The translations under genes were made by a program, and so were the position numbers. The notes beneath the pieces are model-generated. The model searched no databases, was not told where the DNA came from, and worked only from the letters and a program-made list of their open reading frames with translations. From a candidate division FCPU426 bacterium (GTDB taxonomy: Bacteria; Oederibacteriota; Muellerivitia; Muellerivitales; Muellerivitaceae), in assembly GCA_963738405.1 (NCBI GenBank), contig CAVTWJ010000002.1, positions 1-64,000 of the forward strand: a DNA stretch of 64,000 nt, in the 5' to 3' direction. Positions 1 through 27,911 of this stretch are shown here, in pieces. How positions within the stretch are numbered: position 1 is the first letter of the stretch; each line of letters opens with the position of its first letter.

Positions 1-347
1 GCGGTCAGGGTAATGCCCGCCACGGCGGTCGGCAGGGCAAAAGGCAGGTCCACCAAGGCGTCTAAGAGGGATTTTCCAGGAAACTTGTAGCGCACCAATA
101 CCCAGGCCACAATCACGCCGAAAACGGAGTTAATCGTGGCTCCGATAAACGAACATCCAAAGGTCAGACGGTAAGAGGCCAAGACCCTTGGGCTGGTCAC
201 GGTCGCCCAAAACTGATCCCAGGTCAGCTGGGTGGTCTTCAATATAAGGGCCCCCAGGGGGATCAAGACGATAAGCCCTAAATATAGAAGGGTCGTGCCC
301 ATGGAAAGGCTGAATCCCGGTAAGACCCCGGTTGATTTAGACCGCAT
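1..347 (-). CDS. cysT: Sulfate ABC transporter permease CysT (5' part; runs off the window)
   Basis: Manual translation from ATG at 347: [31 protein letters not shown]...[31 protein letters not shown], which carries the CysT signature; follows sbp. Confidence 0.93.
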   Translation of the reverse strand, partial: [115 protein letters not shown]

Positions 348-541: not shown

Positions 542-1576
542 TTATTTCGGCTGATAAATCTGGTCAAAGACCCCGCCGTCGGCAAAATAGGCCGTTTGGG
601 CCTTTTTCCACCCGCCGAACACCTTGTTCACCGTAAAGAGCTTGATCGCCGGGAACTGGCTTTGGTATTTCGCCTCCACCTTTTTCAAGCGGGGCCGGTA
701 AAAATTACGGGCAATCACTTCCTGGCCCTCGGGGCTATAGAGGTATTTTAAATATTCCTGTGCCACCTTCGTGGTTCCATGCTTTTCGGTGTTTTGGTCC
801 ACCCATGCCACCGAAGGTTCAGCCAATATACTTAAAGAAGGGTAAACAATCTCGAACTTGTCCTTCCCCAGTTGGTTGATCGCCAGGTAGGCCTCGTTCT
901 CCCAGGCGATCAAAACGTCGCCTAGGCCCCTTTCGGCGAAGGTGGTGGTGGAGCCCCTGGCCCCCGAATCAAGTACCGGCACGTTCCCGTAAACCTTGGC
1001 CACGAACTCCCTAGCCTTGTCTTCTGAACCGTATTTTTTCAGGGCCCAGCCCCAAACCGCCAGAAAATTCCACCGTCCGCCTCCCGAAGTCTTGGGGTTG
1101 GGAGTAATAACCGCTACCCCTGGCTTCGCTAGGTCATCCCAGTCTTTAATGGCCTTGGGGTTTCCCTTGCGCACCAGCAAAACAATGGTTGAGGTATAGG
1201 GGGCGCTGTTATCCGGCAGGCGGCTCTGCCAATTTTCAGGCAAGAGCTTGCCCCTGGTCGCGATGGCGTCGATATCGCCCGACAGTCCCAGGGTGGCTAC
1301 GTCGGCTTCCAGACCGTCGATGATGGCTCGGGCCTGTTTTCCCGACCCGCCGTTGGAAAGATCAACGGTCACATCCTGCCCCGTCTTCCCCTTCCAATAG
1401 GCGGCGAAAACCTTGTCGTAATCGGCGTAGAATTCCCTCGTCGGGTCGTAGGAAACATTCAAAATCTTGACCGCCCCGCCCGCCGGAGCCGCCGCCTTGT
1501 CGTCAGCGGAAGCCAAAGACCTTGAAATGAACAGCGCCGCCAAAACCAGCCCCCAAACTTTTAATTGGTTTTTCAT
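542..1576 (-). CDS. sbp: Sulfate/thiosulfate ABC transporter substrate-binding protein
   Basis: [38 protein letters not shown] and DSGARGST motifs; signal peptide. Confidence 0.95.
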
Positions 1577-1594: not shown

Positions 1595-2905
1595 TTAAAT
1601 CGAAATTTGCGATTGAATCGTGGTGACTTGGTAAGCTTCAACCCCGTCCAGCAAGTGGTCTTCCCAGTTTAGGCTTAACTTCAGGGCGTCTTTATCCTGA
1701 TACCAATCCAGCCCGACGGTGACCGTGTCGAATTCCTGGTCGTATTTTGAGCCTGCCCATTGGTTGAAGTTATATCCGTCCCAACGAACGCCCAGGCGCC
1801 AATTATCGTAGCGGTAGTTGGTCGACAGGTAATAGGCGGTCGGATAGATCTGGCCGGAGGGTATCGTGAAAGACTTAACCGCGGCGGGCAGGGGCGGCAG
1901 GCTCGTGAAGGCCGTCCAACCGCTGTTATTGGCCGAGCTGTTGTCGAGGGTGTTCACGCTTCCCTGGATAAATTCACCCTGAACCTTGAGGCCCTGGTAA
2001 GCCCAGCGGCCTTCCAACCCAAAGTCCCAACGGGGGCCGAAAACTTCCCAACCGTCGTAACCGGATAGGCCTAGAAAGAGGCTCTTGTCATAGGTAAAGC
2101 CCGCTCGGGCCGCCAAATCCTTGTCCACGTTGTTGTCCGCCGTGCTTTGGCCCGAACCCTGGATGACGGAAAGAACATATTCGCCCTGCAAGGGCAGATC
2201 GCCTATGGGTATTCCTGTTCCCGCCAATTGAACGCCGATGTCGCGTTTATTGCCAAAAGCTGTGGCGAGATTGGAGAGGTTGTTGAAATCCTGATCGCCG
2301 CTGGGCCAGCGCCCTTCCAATTCCTGGGCGAATTTATTTTGGCCCAGGATAACGGTGGCGTAGGGGCTGTAGGCCAGCTTCACATAGAAGTCCTTCACCA
2401 GCGAAAAGGGGTTGATGTTTCCCACAATGCTGGTGCCTCCCGAAACCTCACCGGGATAGCTCAAGGCCGTCCCGGACGTGAGGCCAAGACCGGTAAAGCT
2501 GGCCTGCGTCGGGTCGATTTTCAACAGCCAGGTAACCGCTGGGTCGCTTCCAAAGGTGGAACCCAGGGAAATCTCGCCCCGCCTGAAGGAGAAGGCGTCC
2601 CATTGGTTTTTCGACGAGGTGTAATCATTCGCCGATCCGTTGGCAGTCCCGCCTGTAAGGGTGCTTCCCCAACTGTTATGCGTGTACCAGAACTGAACCA
2701 AGGCACCCACCTTGATATTTGAAGACTGGACCGTTTCCAAAGCCTTCAAACGGTTGTTGATCGCTTCCAAGTCCGAAACTGAAATTGCCGCGGGTTCATC
2801 CACCGAATCGGTATCTCCTTTGGATACATCCTTCGCCCCAACCCTAGCGGCTGTTAAAAACAACCCCGCCAGTAATGCCAGCAGATAAGCGAATAGCTTT
2901 TTCAT
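1595..2905 (-). CDS. Outer-membrane porin (phosphate-selective porin O/P-like), probably an anion channel
   Basis: Signal peptide, short coiled coil, beta-strand-rich body, FSFRRGEI, RDIGVQ and DNNVDKDLAAR motifs; directly upstream of sbp. Confidence 0.7.
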   Translation of the reverse strand: MKKLFAYLLALLAGLFLTAARVGAKDVSKGDTDSVDEPAAISVSDLEAINNRLKALETVQSSNIKVGALVQFWYTHNSWGSTLTGGTANGSANDYTSSKNQWDAFSFRRGEISLGSTFGSDPAVTWLLKIDPTQASFTGLGLTSGTALSYPGEVSGGTSIVGNINPFSLVKDFYVKLAYSPYATVILGQNKFAQELEGRWPSGDQDFNNLSNLATAFGNKRDIGVQLAGTGIPIGDLPLQGEYVLSVIQGSGQSTADNNVDKDLAARAGFTYDKSLFLGLSGYDGWEVFGPRWDFGLEGRWAYQGLKVQGEFIQGSVNTLDNSSANNSGWTAFTSLPPLPAAVKSFTIPSGQIYPTAYYLSTNYRYDNWRLGVRWDGYNFNQWAGSKYDQEFDTVTVGLDWYQDKDALKLSLNWEDHLLDGVEAYQVTTIQSQISI

Positions 2906-2967: not shown

Positions 2968-3001
2968 AAAAACCCGGCCCCTCTGCGTGTCGCGGGCCGG
3001 G
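2968..3001 (-). terminator. Intrinsic terminator of riboswitch 1 expression platform
   Basis: Minus strand CCCGGCCC...GGGCCGGG followed by UUUUU, about 60 nt before the porin start. Confidence 0.7.
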
Positions 3002-3024
3002 ATGAATTTGTCTTCATCACAACA

Positions 3025-3106
3025 CCGCTTTAGCTCCCTGTTTGTCCATTCCCACAAATCTGGAAACGAAACCGGCCGGGGCAAGTTGGTCATTAAATCC
3101 CGCCGT
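3025..3106 (-). ncRNA. SAM-II-like riboswitch aptamer, copy 1 (upstream of porin-sbp-cysT)
   Basis: Minus strand ACGGCGGG-AUUUAA-UGA-CCAACUUGC-CCCGGCCG...AAACAGGGA-GCUAAAGCGG: P1, U-rich L1, UUGC/GCUAA and CC/GG pseudoknot pairings as in SAM-II. Confidence 0.72.
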
Positions 3107-3145
3107 CAAACTCAAAAATTTTCACAACCACAACGTCAATTTTTC

Positions 3146-3295
3146 ACCACCAAGACACCAAGTCACCAAGAACAGCAAAGACTTTACATTTCAAAAAACA
3201 ATTCGCTTTTGTTTCCAACCCTATAATTTTGGGGTTCGGTCCTAAACCCATTTTCTTTGCCTTGGTCTTACTCGGTGCCTTGGTGTCTTGGTGGT
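3146..3295. mobile_element. MITE-like element, copy B
   Basis: accaccaagacaccaagtcaccaagaacagc ... ctcggtgccttggtgtcttggtggt; core similar to copy A. Confidence 0.75.
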
Positions 3296-3319
3296 AAACC
3301 TTTCTTCGTTTTTCCTTTC

Positions 3320-3958
3320 TTATTTGTTGGGCTGGGGCGTCAGGCGAAGGTAAGGCTTCACCACCTTGTAACCCTTCGGGAAACGCTTCTTCAGTTCTTC
3401 CTCGTCCTTCAAGGCTGGAACAATCACCACATCGTCCCCCTGCTTCCAATTCACCGGGGTGGCCACCTTGTAGTTGTCGGTCAGTTGGAGCGAGTCAATC
3501 ACCCGCAAAATCTCGTCGAAATTGCGGCCCGTGCTGGCCGGGTAGGTAATCGTGGCGCGGATTTTTTTATCGCCGTCGATGATGAAAACCGACCGCACCG
3601 TTGCGTTGGCCAGTGAATTGGGGTGGATCAGGTCGTACAACAGCGAAACCTTGTGGTCGTAATCCGCCAGAATGGGAAAATTAACCTGGGTGTTCTGGGT
3701 TTCGTTGATTTCCGGTATCCACCCCTTGTGGTTTTCCACCGAATCCACCGAAAGGGCGATGGCCTTCACGCCCCTCTTTTCAAATTCACCCTTCAATTTG
3801 GAAGTGGCCCCCAATTCAGTGGTGCAAACCGGGGTAAAATCCGCCGGGTGCGAAAAAAACACCACCCAGCTTTTACCCGCCCACTCATGAAAGTGAATCT
3901 TCCCTTCGCTTGAATCCTGCTCAAAATCCGGCGCGACGTCTCCTAATCGTAGTGACAT
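3320..3958 (-). CDS. 1-Cys peroxiredoxin (Prx6/LsfA type)
   Basis: FSHPADFTPVCTTE, YPASTGRNFDE and ATPVNWK motifs; start reassigned to MSLRLGD at 3958, which follows a GGGAGG RBS. Confidence 0.93.
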   Translation of the reverse strand: MSLRLGDVAPDFEQDSSEGKIHFHEWAGKSWVVFFSHPADFTPVCTTELGATSKLKGEFEKRGVKAIALSVDSVENHKGWIPEINETQNTQVNFPILADYDHKVSLLYDLIHPNSLANATVRSVFIIDGDKKIRATITYPASTGRNFDEILRVIDSLQLTDNYKVATPVNWKQGDDVVIVPALKDEEELKKRFPKGYKVVKPYLRLTPQPNK

Positions 3959-3996
3959 GACCTGCCTCCCCATTTTTAGATACGGCCCCGTAAAAC

Positions 3997-4033
3997 AAAA
4001 AACCCGAGTCCGCTTTTTTGGCGGCTCGGGTTT
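3997..4033 (-). terminator. Intrinsic terminator of riboswitch 2 expression platform
   Basis: Minus strand CCCGAGCCGC-CAAAAAA-GCGGACUCGGG-UUUUUU. Confidence 0.8.
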
Positions 4034-4054
4034 CCGGATGATGGAAATCATTTG

Positions 4055-4200
4055 CCGCTTTAGCCCCCAGTTCAGCCGACCTCCAGAAAAAAACCTAGAG
4101 AGCCAACACGGCCGGGGCAAGTTGGTCAAAAACCCTTTATTTCTAAGCGTTTTTGAAGGTTTCCCTTGTTCAGGAAAACCACCAGTTAAAGCCTCGCCGT
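4055..4200 (-). ncRNA. SAM-II-like riboswitch aptamer, copy 2, with long hairpin insertions in L1 and L3
   Basis: Minus strand ACGGCGAGG-CUUUAA-[~60 nt, two hairpins]-CCAACUUGC-CCCGGCCGU...GAACUGGGG-GCUAAAGCGG. Confidence 0.68.
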
Positions 4201-4222
4201 TACGACAAAAAACTAAATTTTC

Positions 4223-4326
4223 ACCACCAAGTCACAAAGACACCAAGAAAAGCAGAGGATATAGCTTCCGTTTTAACCCCATTTTCTTTGCCTTGGCCTT
4301 ACTTGGTGCCTTGGTGTCTTGGTGGT
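4223..4326. mobile_element. MITE-like element, copy C (shorter core), between the tandem riboswitches
   Basis: accaccaagtcacaaagacaccaag ... cttggtgccttggtgtcttggtggt. Confidence 0.72.
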
Positions 4327-4343
4327 TAATTGGGCTTTTAAAT

Positions 4344-4377
4344 AAAAAAACCCGGTCCACTTTTGGCGGATCGGGTT
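4344..4377 (-). terminator. Intrinsic terminator of riboswitch 3 expression platform
   Basis: Minus strand CCCGAUCCGC-CAAAA-GUGGACCGGG-UUUUUUU. Confidence 0.8.
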
Positions 4378-4402
4378 TAGGGAGTTCTTCCTAAATCTTC
4401 TA

Positions 4403-4470
4403 CCGCTTTAGCCCCCTGTTCTTTCCTTTCGGAAAACGCCGGGGCAAGTTGGACCTTAAAGCCTCGCGTT
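4403..4470 (-). ncRNA. SAM-II-like riboswitch aptamer, copy 3 (most compact)
   Basis: Minus strand AACGCGAGG-CUUUAA-GGU-CCAACUUGC-CCCGGCGUU-UUCCGAAAGGAA-AGAACAGGGG-GCUAAAGCGG. Confidence 0.75.
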
Positions 4471-4480
4471 GATATTTTGA

Positions 4481-4509
4481 AGGTTACCGGGGGTCCAGAT
4501 TATTGTCAA
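4481..4509 (-). promoter_or_regulatory. Sigma70-type promoter for the riboswitch-prx unit
   Basis: TTGACA-N17-TAACCT, ending about 10 nt upstream of aptamer 3. Confidence 0.65.
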
Positions 4510-4599: not shown

Positions 4600-5976
4600 T
4601 TAATTGGATTTTTTATTTTTCAAATCAATAAACACTGACAGAGGCACCGTCTTACGGAATTTCGCTCGATCACCGCTTGTATTTATAAGGTCCATAACCG
4701 ATTTAAGCGCAAATCCGCCAACAGGTATTTCCCAACCAATTGCACCACTAACTATAGGTGTCCCGAGAAGTGTTGCAAACATGCCGCCCTGAAAACTTTT
4801 CAACAATTCCATATCAATTTGTTTCCACTCCTCCTCAGCAACTTTGAATTCTTCTGTTAGGTTCTCTTTGAACTCATTGATAACTTTTTCTTTTACAGTT
4901 TTTTCAGAATCATTTTCTATTTCTCTCCAAACTTTCCTGAGAAAATTTCTCAAGGATTGCAACCGACCCGCAGATCGTATTTCAGAGGCGAATTTCGGAT
5001 CGACATTATCCAAGAACTTAAACTCCAAATCTTGAAACGACTTGGTTAACGGACTCCACACCTCGCTTTCCGTCCCCGCCGTCTGTTTTGACATCAATAT
5101 TTGATTCCAAGACATGTTTGAACTCGTAAAAAGATATGAACCTGTCAGCTGCGAGATATAAAAACAAGTTTCTAAATTCCCGCCTCCATGAATATGCAAA
5201 AATTGATTAGTGGGCTTCTCTTCAATCAATAAGGGGTCAGATTTATGATGTTGCCGAAGAACTTGAATAAATTTACGCGTTTTCTCATCGTCTGGCGCGT
5301 CTGGAAAAAACACCCTTAACTGATCAAGTGTCATTTCTTCTGGGACACTAGCAATTATTCTTCCAACCATTTCCTGAAACTCATTTTTAAGGTCACCATC
5401 GATGTCCTTCGGTTCTAATTTCGACATGGCATCCATTCTTTTTTGTGCCAAATTTGCCATTGTTTCTCGGAGGTTTGGTTCAAAATCAACAGGGCTTGGG
5501 ATCATCCTCACAACGCCACTTCTAATAAATGGATCAATTTGAATCATTAAATAAATCAAACGCAATAAGTTTTCTTTGTGCATTTCCGGATTCACCAAGG
5601 GGTTATATTCTTCTTTAACCCGCCATGGATTCATAAACGGATCAACGAGTAAAATTTCATCTGTGTAAAGTGAGTATCGGAGGATATTTTTTAATATGGT
5701 TTTGGGATTCTGGATACCCATATACAACCCGCGCAATTTCCCATCCGGCTTAGGATAAATTGTAGATAGTTCAGTATCGGGCGGCCAAAGAAACTTAATA
5801 GTTTCAAAAATTTCAATTATTTGTTCTTTAGAAAATCCTTTTTTGAATTGGTCCCATGTCTTTCCTTTTTTGAAACCACATGTTTCCCATAACATTTCCA
5901 GAAAAAATATATTTCGATTTAAAATAGGGGCATCTTTTTCGATTAGTGTGTATGGCGACCTTTCAGGTTCCTTCAT
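4600..5976 (-). CDS. Hypothetical protein, AT-rich (458 aa)
   Basis: Long ORF, visibly lower GC than its flanks; the LWPPDT...LRGLY...YSLYTDEILLVDPF pattern recalls an uncharacterised domain I associate with DUF4238/SEC-C fusions (unverified). Confidence 0.75.
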   Translation of the reverse strand: MKEPERSPYTLIEKDAPILNRNIFFLEMLWETCGFKKGKTWDQFKKGFSKEQIIEIFETIKFLWPPDTELSTIYPKPDGKLRGLYMGIQNPKTILKNILRYSLYTDEILLVDPFMNPWRVKEEYNPLVNPEMHKENLLRLIYLMIQIDPFIRSGVVRMIPSPVDFEPNLRETMANLAQKRMDAMSKLEPKDIDGDLKNEFQEMVGRIIASVPEEMTLDQLRVFFPDAPDDEKTRKFIQVLRQHHKSDPLLIEEKPTNQFLHIHGGGNLETCFYISQLTGSYLFTSSNMSWNQILMSKQTAGTESEVWSPLTKSFQDLEFKFLDNVDPKFASEIRSAGRLQSLRNFLRKVWREIENDSEKTVKEKVINEFKENLTEEFKVAEEEWKQIDMELLKSFQGGMFATLLGTPIVSGAIGWEIPVGGFALKSVMDLINTSGDRAKFRKTVPLSVFIDLKNKKSN

Positions 5977-6284: not shown

Positions 6285-8036
6285 CTACGGCGAAGTCGCG
6301 ACCTTCCCATTACCTTGAGACAACACCACAAACTCCCCATTTCCAAAGGTCACGAAAGACCATTGGGCTTTGCTGGGAAGACTTTGGAGCGTCCAAGTCA
6401 TTCCATCCGGTGAAGTGGCTGCGGTTGTGCTATTACCAGCCAACACAATCGCCACGAATTCCCCATTCCCGTAGGCCATTGAATTCCAGTCATTGCTATT
6501 GGGCAGTGTGCTCGCCGTCCATTCAACCCCGTCCGGCGAGGTCGCTGCCGCCGCGCTATTATTCCCAGAAATCACCACAAATACTCCGTTTCCATAACAT
6601 ACCGATCCCCAATACTGTGAACTGGGAAGGGTTCGGGCTGTCCAAGTGATCCCGTCGGGTGAGGTCGCTGCCGCCGCGCTGGGTCCCGCCACAACCGCCA
6701 CAAATTCCCCGTTTCCATAAGACACTGATCCCCAATACTGTGAACTGGGGAGGGACCGGGCCGTCCAAGTGATCCCATCCGATGAAGTCGCTGCCACCGC
6801 ACCAGAACCATCTGAACCATAGCCCACCGCCACAAATATCCCATTCCCAAAGGTCACGGAAACCCAGTCCTGTGAGACGGGGAGGGAGCAAGCCGTCCAA
6901 GTGACCCCATCGGGCGAGGCCGCTGCCGCCGAGTTTCCACTAGCAACCGCCACAAATTCCCCGTTCCCGTAAGTCACGGAAGTCCAGAACTGTGAACTGG
7001 GGAGGTTTTGAAGCGTCCAGGCGATCCCATCCGGCGAGGTCATCGCCACCGTACTGCGAGACACCCCCGAGACCGCCACAAATTCCGCATCCCCGTAAGT
7101 CGCGGAAGTCCAGAACTGTGAACCAGGAAGGGTATGAGCTGTCCAGGACGATCCCGGCACCAGGGTGGGGCTTGTGGTTGGCGTTTGGCTCGGGTTCGGC
7201 GACATGGTCGACGTCGGTGTGTCGCTGGATGCCGTTTCAGTCATCGTGGGACTCAGGGTTGCGGTCAAAGTATACGTTGGCTCGGATGTGGAAGTATCCA
7301 TAGGGGTTGGAGTAGAGGTCGGAACCGGAGACGCTGTGGATGTGGGCTCCGGTGTACCGCCCGGAAGAACAAAAGTCGTTGGTTGACCCAGCGGGGTTAA
7401 CCCGCCTTGATACCATAATTCCGTACTGTGGATGAAAGTCTGTCCGGCGTTATTGGACCAATCGACATTTTCATAAGCCGCCAAGAGCGTCACGCAGCCG
7501 CTTGCCATGCCCGCCAGGGTGAAGACCCCTCCATTCCCGCCCGGAGCGCTGGCATAAGGATGGCTTGGATCAAACCCCGTGTTATGGATATAGGGGAATA
7601 CCCCGTTCCAACCCCACCCCTCAAACTGAAATGCGGTTCCGGTCATACTGTCCGAAAGGGTCACTGCCGTCCCCAAAGGGGCGGCATCGTTGCAAATCAC
7701 GATGGCATAGGTGACAGGAAAGCTGTTATCCACCTCGGTGATCCCTCCCCCATCCACCGCTTCCGCCATGCGGATACCGGCCGTGGGAATAACGGTCGGG
7801 GTAACCACACTGGTTTGGCTTGGTGTAGCAGGCGTTGGGGAGTTCGTAGCCGGTGGAGTGGTATCGTGGGTCGGGCTTTGCGTGACCGGAATATAAGTGT
7901 TCGTGACGGTCGGGGTGATCGTGGGGGACGATGAGGGGTTGCTGGGCGGGGCCGTGGGATTATCGTTTTTGTTGCCGCAGGAAAAAAAGAACGCCATCAT
8001 GGAAAACAGGAAGAAGGAAAGTACAAAACGAACCAT
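6285..8036 (-). CDS. Lipoprotein with Pro/Thr/Ser linkers and a C-terminal repeat (probable beta-propeller) domain
   Basis: Lipobox-like FFSC; about 6-7 repeats of ~43 aa (W.SV.YGNG.FVAV...AAAxSPDG.TW); start placed at MVRFVL. Confidence 0.75.
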   Translation of the reverse strand: MVRFVLSFFLFSMMAFFFSCGNKNDNPTAPPSNPSSSPTITPTVTNTYIPVTQSPTHDTTPPATNSPTPATPSQTSVVTPTVIPTAGIRMAEAVDGGGITEVDNSFPVTYAIVICNDAAPLGTAVTLSDSMTGTAFQFEGWGWNGVFPYIHNTGFDPSHPYASAPGGNGGVFTLAGMASGCVTLLAAYENVDWSNNAGQTFIHSTELWYQGGLTPLGQPTTFVLPGGTPEPTSTASPVPTSTPTPMDTSTSEPTYTLTATLSPTMTETASSDTPTSTMSPNPSQTPTTSPTLVPGSSWTAHTLPGSQFWTSATYGDAEFVAVSGVSRSTVAMTSPDGIAWTLQNLPSSQFWTSVTYGNGEFVAVASGNSAAAASPDGVTWTACSLPVSQDWVSVTFGNGIFVAVGYGSDGSGAVAATSSDGITWTARSLPSSQYWGSVSYGNGEFVAVVAGPSAAAATSPDGITWTARTLPSSQYWGSVCYGNGVFVVISGNNSAAAATSPDGVEWTASTLPNSNDWNSMAYGNGEFVAIVLAGNSTTAATSPDGMTWTLQSLPSKAQWSFVTFGNGEFVVLSQGNGKVATSP

Positions 8037-8234
8037 GGAATTTCGCAAAGGGACCCTCAATGAACCAGAAATGGTTATTGGGTCCAACCGTCGGAACCAA
8101 CCACCGCTCCCCCATGTCCTATTAAACTCTCATTTGAGAGGGTGTCAACGAGCCCAATCAATATCCCATGTCCTAATATTTAAACAGTCACAAGCGTGAA
8201 AAACCTTAAAAATTAACGCGGAAACCTATTAAAC

Positions 8235-9351: not shown

Positions 9352-9532
9352 TTCACCACCAAGGCACCGAGACACCAAGGGAAATAAAGATTTATTGATT
9401 TTAACCGCCCCCCTCAAGAGGTCACTTTTTGAGTTATTAAGCATTCGGAGTGAATAAACATTTTTGGGTTTGTGTTGTTTAATCCAAGTTTGCCTTTCGG
9501 TGTTCTTGGTGTCTTGGTGCCTTGGTGGTGAA
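9352..9532. mobile_element. MITE-like element, copy D, between exbB and exbD
   Basis: ttcaccaccaaggcaccgagacaccaag ... cttggtgtcttggtgccttggtggtgaa; core differs from copies A and B. Confidence 0.72.
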
Positions 9533-27771: not shown

Positions 27772-27911
27772 TTCACCACCAAGACACCAAGAAAAACCAA
27801 AGCAAAGAAATTGGTTTAGACCCGAAACTAAAAACAAAGGCAGGAAACAAAAGGTTTTTTTAATCCATGAAATCTTTGCTGTTCTTGGTGCCTTGGTGTC
27901 TTGGTGGTGAA
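27772..27911. mobile_element. MITE-like element, copy E (inverted relative to A and B), with a degenerate extra end at ~27732-27760
   Basis: ttcaccaccaagacaccaag ... cttggtgccttggtgtcttggtggtgaa; core resembles the reverse complement of copy A. Confidence 0.75.

Follow-up and report, generated by a model that had tools for sequence, protein, structure and literature searches.

A putative pseudoknot riboswitch resembling SAM-II and SAM-V precedes sulfur-assimilation genes in uncultured bacteria

In Firmicutes, SAM-I (S-box) RNAs are terminator switches that respond to S-adenosylmethionine (SAM) and repress methionine, cysteine and some sulfate-assimilation operons. A functional parallel between SAM-I and SAM-II was drawn by Corbino et al. 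(2005, PMC1273637), who describe many SAM-II representatives as OFF switches carrying an intrinsic terminator between helix P2 and the open reading frame (ORF), and who place the start of SAM-II usually a few nucleotides after the promoter. The translational SAM-II of metX is called 'rare' by Huang and Lilley (2018, PMC6061858), and a SAM-II predicted to terminate transcription is mentioned in PMC9373788. Here we describe a leader element of related design, present in three minus-strand copies upstream of peroxiredoxin and sulfate-transport genes in a 64,000-nt stretch of a candidate division FCPU426 genome (contig CAVTWJ010000002.1, positions 1 to 64,000; hereafter the window). That the element is a genuine riboswitch seems to us very likely; that it joins a SAM-II/SAM-V pseudoknot-triplex aptamer to a terminator platform, has SAM as its ligand and works as an OFF switch on sulfur assimilation is our preferred reading, to which we assign a probability of about 0.6.

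The architecture of SAM-V as described by Huang and Lilley (PMC6061858) provides the frame for the comparison. A 4-bp P1 is followed by a third strand, G5-G11, which lies in the major groove of P2 with C6 bulged and U8-U10 engaged in triples. After a 3-nt turn, the descending strand (U19, U20, G21) runs straight into P1, beyond which stand the P3 hairpin and three stacked adenines (A40-A42) that make A-minor contacts. The ascending strand then brings C46, the bulged U47, which pairs with the adenine of SAM, A48, which forms the U20:A48.U9 layer at the sulfonium, A49, and A50, which holds the amino acid. A P2a helix of 2 bp joins nucleotides 14-15 to the sequence just 3' of the aptamer.

All three leaders of the window lie within positions 2968-4509 of its minus strand and, as a preliminary description of this DNA had reported, share one order of blocks (3/3 copies): a 5' arm, (C/A)UUUAA, CCAACUUGC, CCCGGC and AAC(A/U)GGG(A/G)GCUAAAGCGG. 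The 15-mer CCAACTTGCCCCGGC has three exact matches in the 64 kb, all on the minus strand (4438-4452, 4111-4125 and 3075-3089), while the remaining six of its nine listed matches carry three mismatches each, with a chance expectation of 4.49. The block GGGRGCTAAAGCGG is exact at 4403-4416, 4055-4068 and 3025-3038, and the exact core blocks are absent from the rest of the window. Outside these blocks the three copies diverge so strongly that they cannot be taken for recent duplicates, and the common blocks therefore look constrained. Every copy leads into a spacer hairpin and then a G+C-rich hairpin with a run of U, again in agreement with the preliminary description. The parts of the three leaders are listed below; bit scores refer to R1, a covariance model of 39 copies whose given structure consists of P1 and the hairpin only, and dG denotes predicted folding free energy.

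4481..4509, minus: promoter-like site before copy 1 (TTGACA at 4504-4509, a 17-nt spacer and TAACCT at 4481-4486, 10 nt before P1), a weak candidate with 3/6 matches in the second hexamer
4403..4470, minus: copy 1 aptamer, the best match of R1 (88.5 bits)
4376..4395, minus: copy 1 spacer hairpin (UUUAGG...CCUAAA)
4344..4376, minus: copy 1 intrinsic terminator, a hairpin of dG -14.4 followed by U7, with CCGC, complementary to the aptamer tail GCGG, in its 5' arm
4055..4200, minus: copy 2 aptamer, of the insertion subtype (39.6 bits, 3' two thirds only)
4038-4051 and 3992-4035, minus: copy 2 spacer hairpin and terminator (dG -22.7, U run)
3025..3106, minus: copy 3 aptamer, with the 5' arm variant GGG-A-UUUAA lacking the bulged A, a longer hairpin and GGGAGCUAAAGCGG (64.2 bits)
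3001-3018 and 2968-3000, minus: copy 3 spacer hairpin and terminator (dG -15.8, U5)

Copy 1 illustrates the simple form of the element. Its 5' part comprises the P1 5' strand AACGC, GAGG-C-UUU-AA as candidate third strand and a 3-nt turn; its middle, CCAACUUGCCCC as the descending pseudoknot strand, a bulged G, the P1 3' strand GCGUU and a small hairpin; and its 3' part, AACA followed by GGGGGC-U-AAA-GCGG, the ascending strand with its tail. In copy 2 the 5' side, consisting of the P1 5' strand and GAGGCUUUAA, lies at 4186-4200, followed by a 60-nt insertion (4126-4185) between UUUAA and CCAAC that is predicted to fold into two hairpins (dG -22.2, z -4.5). The descending strand and P1 3' strand of this copy occupy 4108-4125, the hairpin 4073-4107, and AACU with GGGGGCUAAAGCGG 4055-4072; R1 covers only its 3' two thirds because the insertion displaces the 5' arm. 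The terminators were located by a ViennaRNA-based scan, which recovered all three. A simpler terminator scan of the window returned only part of the copy 1 terminator, with 8 sites against 8.3 expected, and a simple promoter scan passed over the site before copy 1, whose second hexamer is only half matched, and gave one promoter-like site, on the wrong strand.

Homologs were collected by scanning species-representative genomes with an exact-word pattern of two core blocks and a gap, which yielded 51 loci. Among the 58 distinct pattern matches, 48 carry the full element, with 5' arm, UUUAA and GG after the tail. The other ten have no 5' arm, nine of them also lacking the GG tail, and loci L009, L011, L012, L022, L029, L032, L033, L037, L045 and L046, which have no 5' arm, were set aside as chance matches; R1 scores just one of these ten loci (L032, at E 0.009) and rejects the other nine. 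Looser matching within the fetched flanks added copies with altered cores, for a total of 76 distinct copies including the three of the window, and R1 gives 102 matches at E<=0.01, in 80 distinct rows. Copies outside the window fall into 25 uncultured assemblies (by count of accession prefixes), with records titled Elusimicrobia or Elusimicrobiota (11), Firestonebacteria (1), Acidobacteria (2), 'Candidatus Obscuribacterium' (1), 'proteobacteria' (3) or simply 'bacterium' (7). The leaders seen in the window are thus real and beyond chance, since the composite element recurs in 25 other assemblies.

Many of these copies are clustered. CAZUXW010000001.1 carries ten of them in a stretch of about 25 kb, assembly CAZGKT01 has 11 and JABDGD010000017.1 has 7. 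Among the 55 units, two copies stand in series in 17 and three in 2. As in known tandem riboswitches, whole aptamer-and-terminator units here follow one another ahead of a single gene, an arrangement that could make the dose response tighter (Weinberg et al. 2017, PMC5737381); in contrast to known tandem arrangements, the pair before the peroxiredoxin gene joins two distinct subtypes, simple and insertion-type, and is kept in eight genomes (the window, L014, L015, L025, L028, L043, L044 and L048). With this pair so widespread, and with 7 to 11 copies in other genomes, the arrangement singled out in the preliminary description is not peculiar to the window, which is a typical member of a conserved regulon.

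The fold is best documented for P1, a 5-bp helix. In 72 of the 76 copies parsed by regular expression (four insertion-type copies being left out), P1 pairs 2-5 are paired in 67, 68, 69 and 68 copies, with A-U, C-G, G-C and U-A as alternatives. Alignment A4, a model-derived alignment of 66 simple copies, displays changes on both sides in 4/5 P1 pairs and 4/4 hairpin pairs, and its covariation score of 0.277 compares with 0.120 in column shuffles (0/500 reach it) and at most 0.104 when the partners are slid. In some GCGGG copies, MAFFT and the model place the 5' arm one column off, lowering the P1 counts on A4 and leaving the regular-expression parse unaffected. The hairpin after P1 varies in size from none (L004:2835-2908) to more than 40 nt.

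The second helix makes the element an H-type pseudoknot, in which the 5' strand of P2 is located in the loop of P1 and is directly continuous with the P1 3' strand. Specifically, the descending strand CCAA(C/A)UUGCCCC continues into P1, and a conserved AAC(A) linker leads to the ascending strand GGG-N-GC-U-AAA and the invariant tail GCGG; UUGCCCC pairs with GGG-N-GC-U-AA, leaving N and U bulged. In the fixed register, 96.6% of P2 cells are paired, with one both-sided change. Compensatory variants are found as GCUCC with GAGC or GGAGC (10 copies, plus L002:4128-4231 with GGAGC) and as GCCUC with GAGGC (L018:4761-4850). Covariation, a check proposed in the preliminary description, is accordingly strong for P1 and amounts to a few compensatory changes for P2. 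Several positions outside the search pattern are near-invariant in A4, namely G20, G21, U24 and U25 (66/66 each), A26 (62/66), A27 (64/66), A108 (66/66), A109 (65/66), C110 (61/66), and G124 and G125 (66/66 each). Two further pairings were dropped: Watson-Crick pairing of L1 GCUUUA with the tail UAAAGC, because L1 varies (GAUUUA, GCGUUA, GAGUUC) under a constant tail, and pairing of the variable N of GGG-N-GC with the C/A after GG, for which no correlation was found.

Set beside SAM-V, the element matches it part by part, in unchanged order. The series is G-(C/A)-U-U-U-A-A, about 3 nt of turn, CC, AA(C/A)-UUG-CCCC continuous with P1, a hairpin that may be absent, AAC(A), GGG-N-GC-U-AAA, GC and GG. 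The ascending C-U-A-A-A is present in 66/66 aligned copies and in L002:4128-4231, most copies having been retrieved by a pattern that holds this block. The candidate third strand contains the invariant U24 and U25, preceded by a C/A that varies, like the bulged C6 of SAM-V, and by analogy this strand may form major-groove triples with P2. Conserved adenines (A108, A109) precede the ascending strand, where A-minor contacts may be expected by analogy. The CC dinucleotide (64 and 66 of 66) can pair with the terminal GG (66/66), with two U-G variants and no both-sided change, and from the match to SAM-V these would form a short P2a helix. Likewise, the bulged U, the U:A.U layer and the third A, the three ligand-contact features of SAM-V, have invariant counterparts in the element, where they would form the ligand pocket. 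In the second subtype it is precisely the turn that takes up the insertions, and extra hairpins should be tolerated there. These roles, taken from PMC6061858, match the fold claimed in the preliminary description, with UUGC:GCUAA pairing around a bulged U, CC pairing with a terminal GG, and a U-rich L1. SAM-V and the element share metY as a target, and SAM is favoured by the conservation of the pocket features and by the metY-metX operons found downstream; on this analogy we regard it as the most likely ligand, on balance a probable one.

The element also resembles SAM-II (RF00521, SAM_alpha; the metA motif), which likewise combines a single P1 with a pseudoknot P2 and, in many members, a terminator platform read as an OFF switch. 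SAM-II also has a promoter a few nucleotides before P1, for which copy 1 of the element offers a weak candidate, and methionine-pathway genes downstream (PMC1273637), which are among the element's targets. The classic metY-metX context of SAM-II and SAM-V recurs among the element's targets, and a sub-threshold cmscan alignment reveals that the 3' segment of the SAM_alpha consensus resembles the element's AAAC-AGGG-N-GCUAAAG-CGG. Unlike SAM-II, the element includes an additional hairpin of variable size, its 5' side is extended by the G-rich G(A)GG, and the lower helix of its pseudoknot is longer and rich in G+C. Its hosts differ as well, being mostly Elusimicrobia or Elusimicrobiota by record title, as does its regulon of sulfate uptake and cysteine synthesis. 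Overall, the element probably works like SAM-II and SAM-V and descends from them or converges on them. Other known RNAs are more distant. SAM-I, a four-helix junction without an Rfam match on the window, has an unrelated fold. The sul1 RNA motif, an orphan cis-regulatory candidate with a suspected role in sulfur metabolism, precedes sulfate transporter and serine acetyltransferase genes (Weinberg et al. 2017, PMC5737381) and is thereby close to the element in gene context, whereas the transporters of the element are of the ATP-binding cassette (ABC) type (sbp-cysTWA), not sul1. The sul1 model gave no match at gathering score on the window and 18 loci or at E<=10 on the leaders, and by this Rfam test the motif is a different RNA.

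The expression platform departs from that of SAM-V, which is translational with its Shine-Dalgarno sequence in P2a: in 66 of the 76 copies of the element, a hairpin (dG <= -7) ending at a U run stands some 20-25 nt after the aptamer. The invariant tail GCGG finds its complement, CCGC, in the 5' arm or loop of the terminator in 61 of these 66 copies. CCGC occurs in 60/64 strong terminator hairpins versus 119/562 other terminator-like hairpins in the same DNA, and in many copies the match lengthens to CCGCUUU against AAAGCGG. When the transcript ends short of the terminator 3' arm, 61/66 minimum-energy structures pair four or more nucleotides of the 5' arm with the last 9 nt of the aptamer. The complementarity between the terminator 5' arm and the invariant tail implies an OFF switch. 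With ligand bound, the tail UAAAGCGG would be held in the aptamer, the downstream hairpin and U run would form and transcription would stop; with no ligand, the free tail would pair with the emerging CCGC-containing arm, creating an antiterminator across the spacer hairpin and allowing the genes to be read. Both components of a terminator-type OFF switch, the terminator and the alternative pairing of tail and 5' arm, are present, and their competition would be kinetic.

One copy follows another plan. L002:4128-4231 is a divergent second tandem copy after a terminator version (R1 25.3 bits, E 1e-4). The sequence of its descending strand is CCCGAAUUGCUCC. The ascending strand, with GGAGCUAAAAAAGGAG at its end, stops 8-10 nt short of the ATG at 4239, so that the element closes with GCUAAAAAAGGAG directly before the start codon. 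It is the single copy with such a Shine-Dalgarno-like tail, and these features make it a probable translational version, whose tail would contain the ribosome-binding site.

The genes under the leaders point to sulfur assimilation. Context was assessed from up to four same-strand ORFs per copy, named by NCBIfam (about 87 of 115 proteins), BLASTP clustering and Pfam. A gene for Sbp, CysT/W/A, MetY, MetX, CysK, CysE or a DsrE-like protein is among the next four same-strand ORFs in 50 of the 76 copies, an enrichment anticipated in the preliminary description. Most of the other 26 are cut by a contig end or precede peroxiredoxin, porin, DUF3034 or TolQ/R-TonB-receptor genes that cluster with sulfur genes elsewhere; for two Acidobacteria copies the neighbours are unrelated or unclear. 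The first gene is metY, often followed by metX, in 6 of the 55 units, most units starting with peroxiredoxin, porin, sbp or unknown genes. The two copies in assemblies titled Acidobacteria (L003:2222-2303 and L023:2693-2777) have the GGAUUUAA variant with a terminator, and no recognisable sulfur gene follows: one has purD 507 nt off and the other only small unknown ORFs. In the window, the genes downstream of the leaders are the following.

3320..3958, minus: peroxiredoxin gene with AhpC-TSA and 1-cysPrx_C domains, first gene after copies 1 and 2
1595..2905, minus: secreted protein of 436 residues and no known family, with a signal-peptide-like N-terminus, first gene after copy 3
542..1576, minus: sbp, sulfate ABC transporter substrate-binding protein (NCBIfam NF008022, 2.4e-149)
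3..347, minus: cysT, sulfate ABC permease (NCBIfam TIGR02139, 1.8e-46), cut by the window edge

Three of the four genes named in the preliminary description, for a 1-Cys peroxiredoxin, sbp and cysT, are thereby secured, and the fourth, a 'porin', is the 436-residue protein. This protein has no Pfam or NCBIfam match, occupies the position held by Porin_O_P before sbp in related loci, shows weak BLASTP similarity to one Porin_O_P protein (E 0.001 over 101 residues) and is 74% identical over its first 57 residues to the N-terminus of L013:4560-6068; on this slender basis it is probably an outer-membrane porin. Within the window, copies 1 and 2 would act in series before the peroxiredoxin gene and copy 3 would gate the porin-like gene, sbp and cysT; across genomes, a sulfur-assimilation regulon would be shut off when the sulfur end product is plentiful.

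Further genes were encountered around the element. DUF3034 proteins are encoded under leaders at L010:4342-5268, L021:2299-3120 and L027:710-1606, and small DsrE-like proteins at L018:3427-3906, L039:4896-5444 and L042:4086-4544. In loci L018 and L039, leaders precede almost every gene of a set comprising TolQ, TolR, TonB and a TonB-dependent receptor, and at L015:3-815 a family 2A encapsulin shell gene follows cysK-cysE under a leader. Upstream of the window's leaders, on the minus strand, two ORFs appear unrelated to the sulfur unit: 4600-5976 (458 residues, no family match) and 6285-8087 (a 600-residue repeat protein with sub-threshold matches only).

A number of observations weigh against a SAM-responsive OFF switch of this fold. 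First, its relatives in Rfam do not recognise it: on neither the window nor 18 loci with many copies does any Rfam 15 family attain its gathering score, and the element is by that test not a member of RF00521, SAM-V or SAM-II long-loops, the families against which the preliminary description had proposed to search. At E<=10, SAM_alpha appears once, in locus L002, at 12.8 bits against a cut-off of 36 (E 1.9) and with its helix on the wrong stem. It is absent from the window leaders and from the hairpin-less copy (L004:2825-2925), and the SAM-V and SAM-II long-loops models give no match on the window leaders, L002 or L004. The window leaders return only chance-level microRNA and small-RNA matches, arising from REP-like (repetitive extragenic palindromic) hairpins and terminators. 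Second, the core blocks were in the search pattern and their invariance is partly by construction; the P2 strands, being part of that pattern, hardly vary, which limits the support for P2, and pseudoknot covariation consists of few independent events. Third, the mapping onto SAM-V was read from a text description, not a structural alignment. In this mapping the positions matching A18, U10 and U17 of SAM-V are mostly C, A and A, the tail is one nucleotide longer before the CC:GG helix, and the lower pseudoknot helix is longer and richer in G+C. Fourth, the three C's of GCCCC can pair with either the 5' G(A)GG or the 3' GGG. The former pairing, which may form the top of P1, shows one-sided changes only; taking G(A)GG as the start of the third strand, which is a guess by analogy, would remove the conflict over the three C's.

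The remaining points against this reading concern the platform and the targets. A U run is missing from 10 of the 76 copies, several of which keep the hairpin. In the truncated folds, shuffled tails also pair in 665/1320 (50%), a high control that makes this statistic weak taken alone. Full-length minimum-energy folds with the tail left free retain the terminator in 59/66, and a simple antiterminator is not seen in them; any antitermination must therefore be kinetic. Kinetic competition is common for such switches. Finally, neither metK nor any other SAM-cycle gene is found among the labelled downstream ORFs of the 76 copies.

These points leave several rival explanations to be weighed. The first retains a real riboswitch of this pseudoknot fold and assigns it another ligand (S-adenosylhomocysteine, methionine, homocysteine, cysteine or an adenylated sulfur compound), with a likeness to SAM-II and SAM-V that is partial or convergent; we give it some weight while considering it unlikely. 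The broad regulon, centred on sulfate uptake, cysK/cysE, porins, peroxiredoxin, DsrE-like and TonB genes, the lack of metK and other SAM-cycle targets among the labelled ORFs, the altered pocket-lining positions and the failure of the SAM-II and SAM-V models all leave room for such a ligand. By contrast, SAM-I (S-box) leaders control sulfate-assimilation genes in Bacillus, a precedent for SAM as a proxy for sulfur status. Also against another ligand, the counterparts of the bulged U, the U:A.U layer and the third A, which in SAM-V meet the adenine, the sulfonium and the amino acid of SAM, respectively (PMC6061858), are invariant, and metY-metX operons are among the targets. A more far-reaching version, which we regard as doubtful, would make the element a new class on the SAM-II/SAM-V scaffold that reads another sulfur-status metabolite. 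In Elusimicrobiota and uncultured lineages close to them, it would govern the entire sulfur-starvation regulon in cis, as its master regulator. That regulon would take in ABC transport of sulfate, anion porins, the synthesis of cysteine and homocysteine, a peroxiredoxin, DsrE-like carriers and TonB uptake, with up to at least 11 copies per genome and fixed tandem pairs of two subtypes.

Alternatively, the leader could be a protein-dependent attenuator, read by a protein or other trans factor with no direct binding of a small molecule. We think this improbable. In its favour, SAM is a putative ligand, the conserved single-stranded blocks could be a protein site and full-length folds do not switch unaided. 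On the other hand, the element has the hallmarks of a riboswitch (a pseudoknot with near-invariant junction nucleotides, variable peripheral stems, insertions confined to the turn and a tail shared with the antiterminator), these are kept in assemblies of several phyla by record title, and no conserved regulator gene adjoins the element among the labelled downstream ORFs. Even less probable is an ON switch, in which a starvation-signal ligand such as O-acetylserine would stabilise read-through. Such a switch would suit regulated genes of the kind induced by sulfur starvation, and the thermodynamic folds are ambiguous in this respect. Against it, the invariant aptamer tail is the very strand that pairs with the terminator 5' arm, so that a folded aptamer frees the terminator, and the same arrangement is read as an OFF switch for SAM-II (PMC1273637). 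A dispersed repeat without regulatory role, of the REP or mobile-element-remnant kind, might account for the many, often tandem copies per genome, in a window whose intergenic regions do hold a true REP-like element, but it is already contradicted by the same-strand ORFs, including the sulfur genes, that follow the copies, by covarying stems around fixed cores, by the wide divergence of paralogous copies outside the core and by the lack of the REP-like element in related loci that have the leader.

That REP-like element is a dispersed long inverted repeat of about 100-150 nt, found in the window at 380-525, 3145-3296, 4222-4327, 9354-9530 and 27774-27909, three of the five copies being in the sulfur locus. 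Its arms, of type CACCACCAAGACACCAAG, give 12 matches against 0.07 expected, and long hairpins are its predicted fold (dG -45.6 and -57.5, z -5.7 and -6.7). By its sequence it is a REP- or MITE-like (miniature inverted-repeat transposable element) repeat, and it is absent from the 51 related loci except for one lone half-site in L022. One of its copies lies between two leaders.

4222..4327, no strand assigned: REP/MITE-like long inverted repeat separating copy 2 from the copy 1 terminator, and distinct from the riboswitch

Returning to the SAM-responsive OFF switch, the preliminary description had suggested that the combination of mechanism, gene context and copy number is undescribed, and had stated that SAM-II usually acts on translation. 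No description of the element was found in Rfam 15 or the literature, papers in subscription journals lying outside the search. The statement on SAM-II does not hold: given the terminators of many SAM-II representatives (PMC1273637) and the rarity of the translational metX form (PMC6061858), SAM-II commonly terminates transcription and termination is thus no novelty. The element is new as a sequence family relative to Rfam 15, while its terminator mechanism and its fold are of kinds already known. A clear structural relative of an established class thus goes unrecognised by present database models.

If our reading is correct, the element would be a third sequence family on the SAM-II/SAM-V fold, in phyla without cultured model organisms. 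In well-studied bacteria, sulfur assimilation is controlled by protein regulators of the CysB type. Here, one small RNA would run the whole sulfur-assimilation regulon, from uptake and porins to cysteine and homocysteine synthesis and peroxiredoxin. Its natural tandem pairs of two subtypes would offer material for studying serial switches and dose response, and the shared control would provide an annotation handle for DUF3034, the 436-residue outer-membrane protein and the small DsrE-like proteins.

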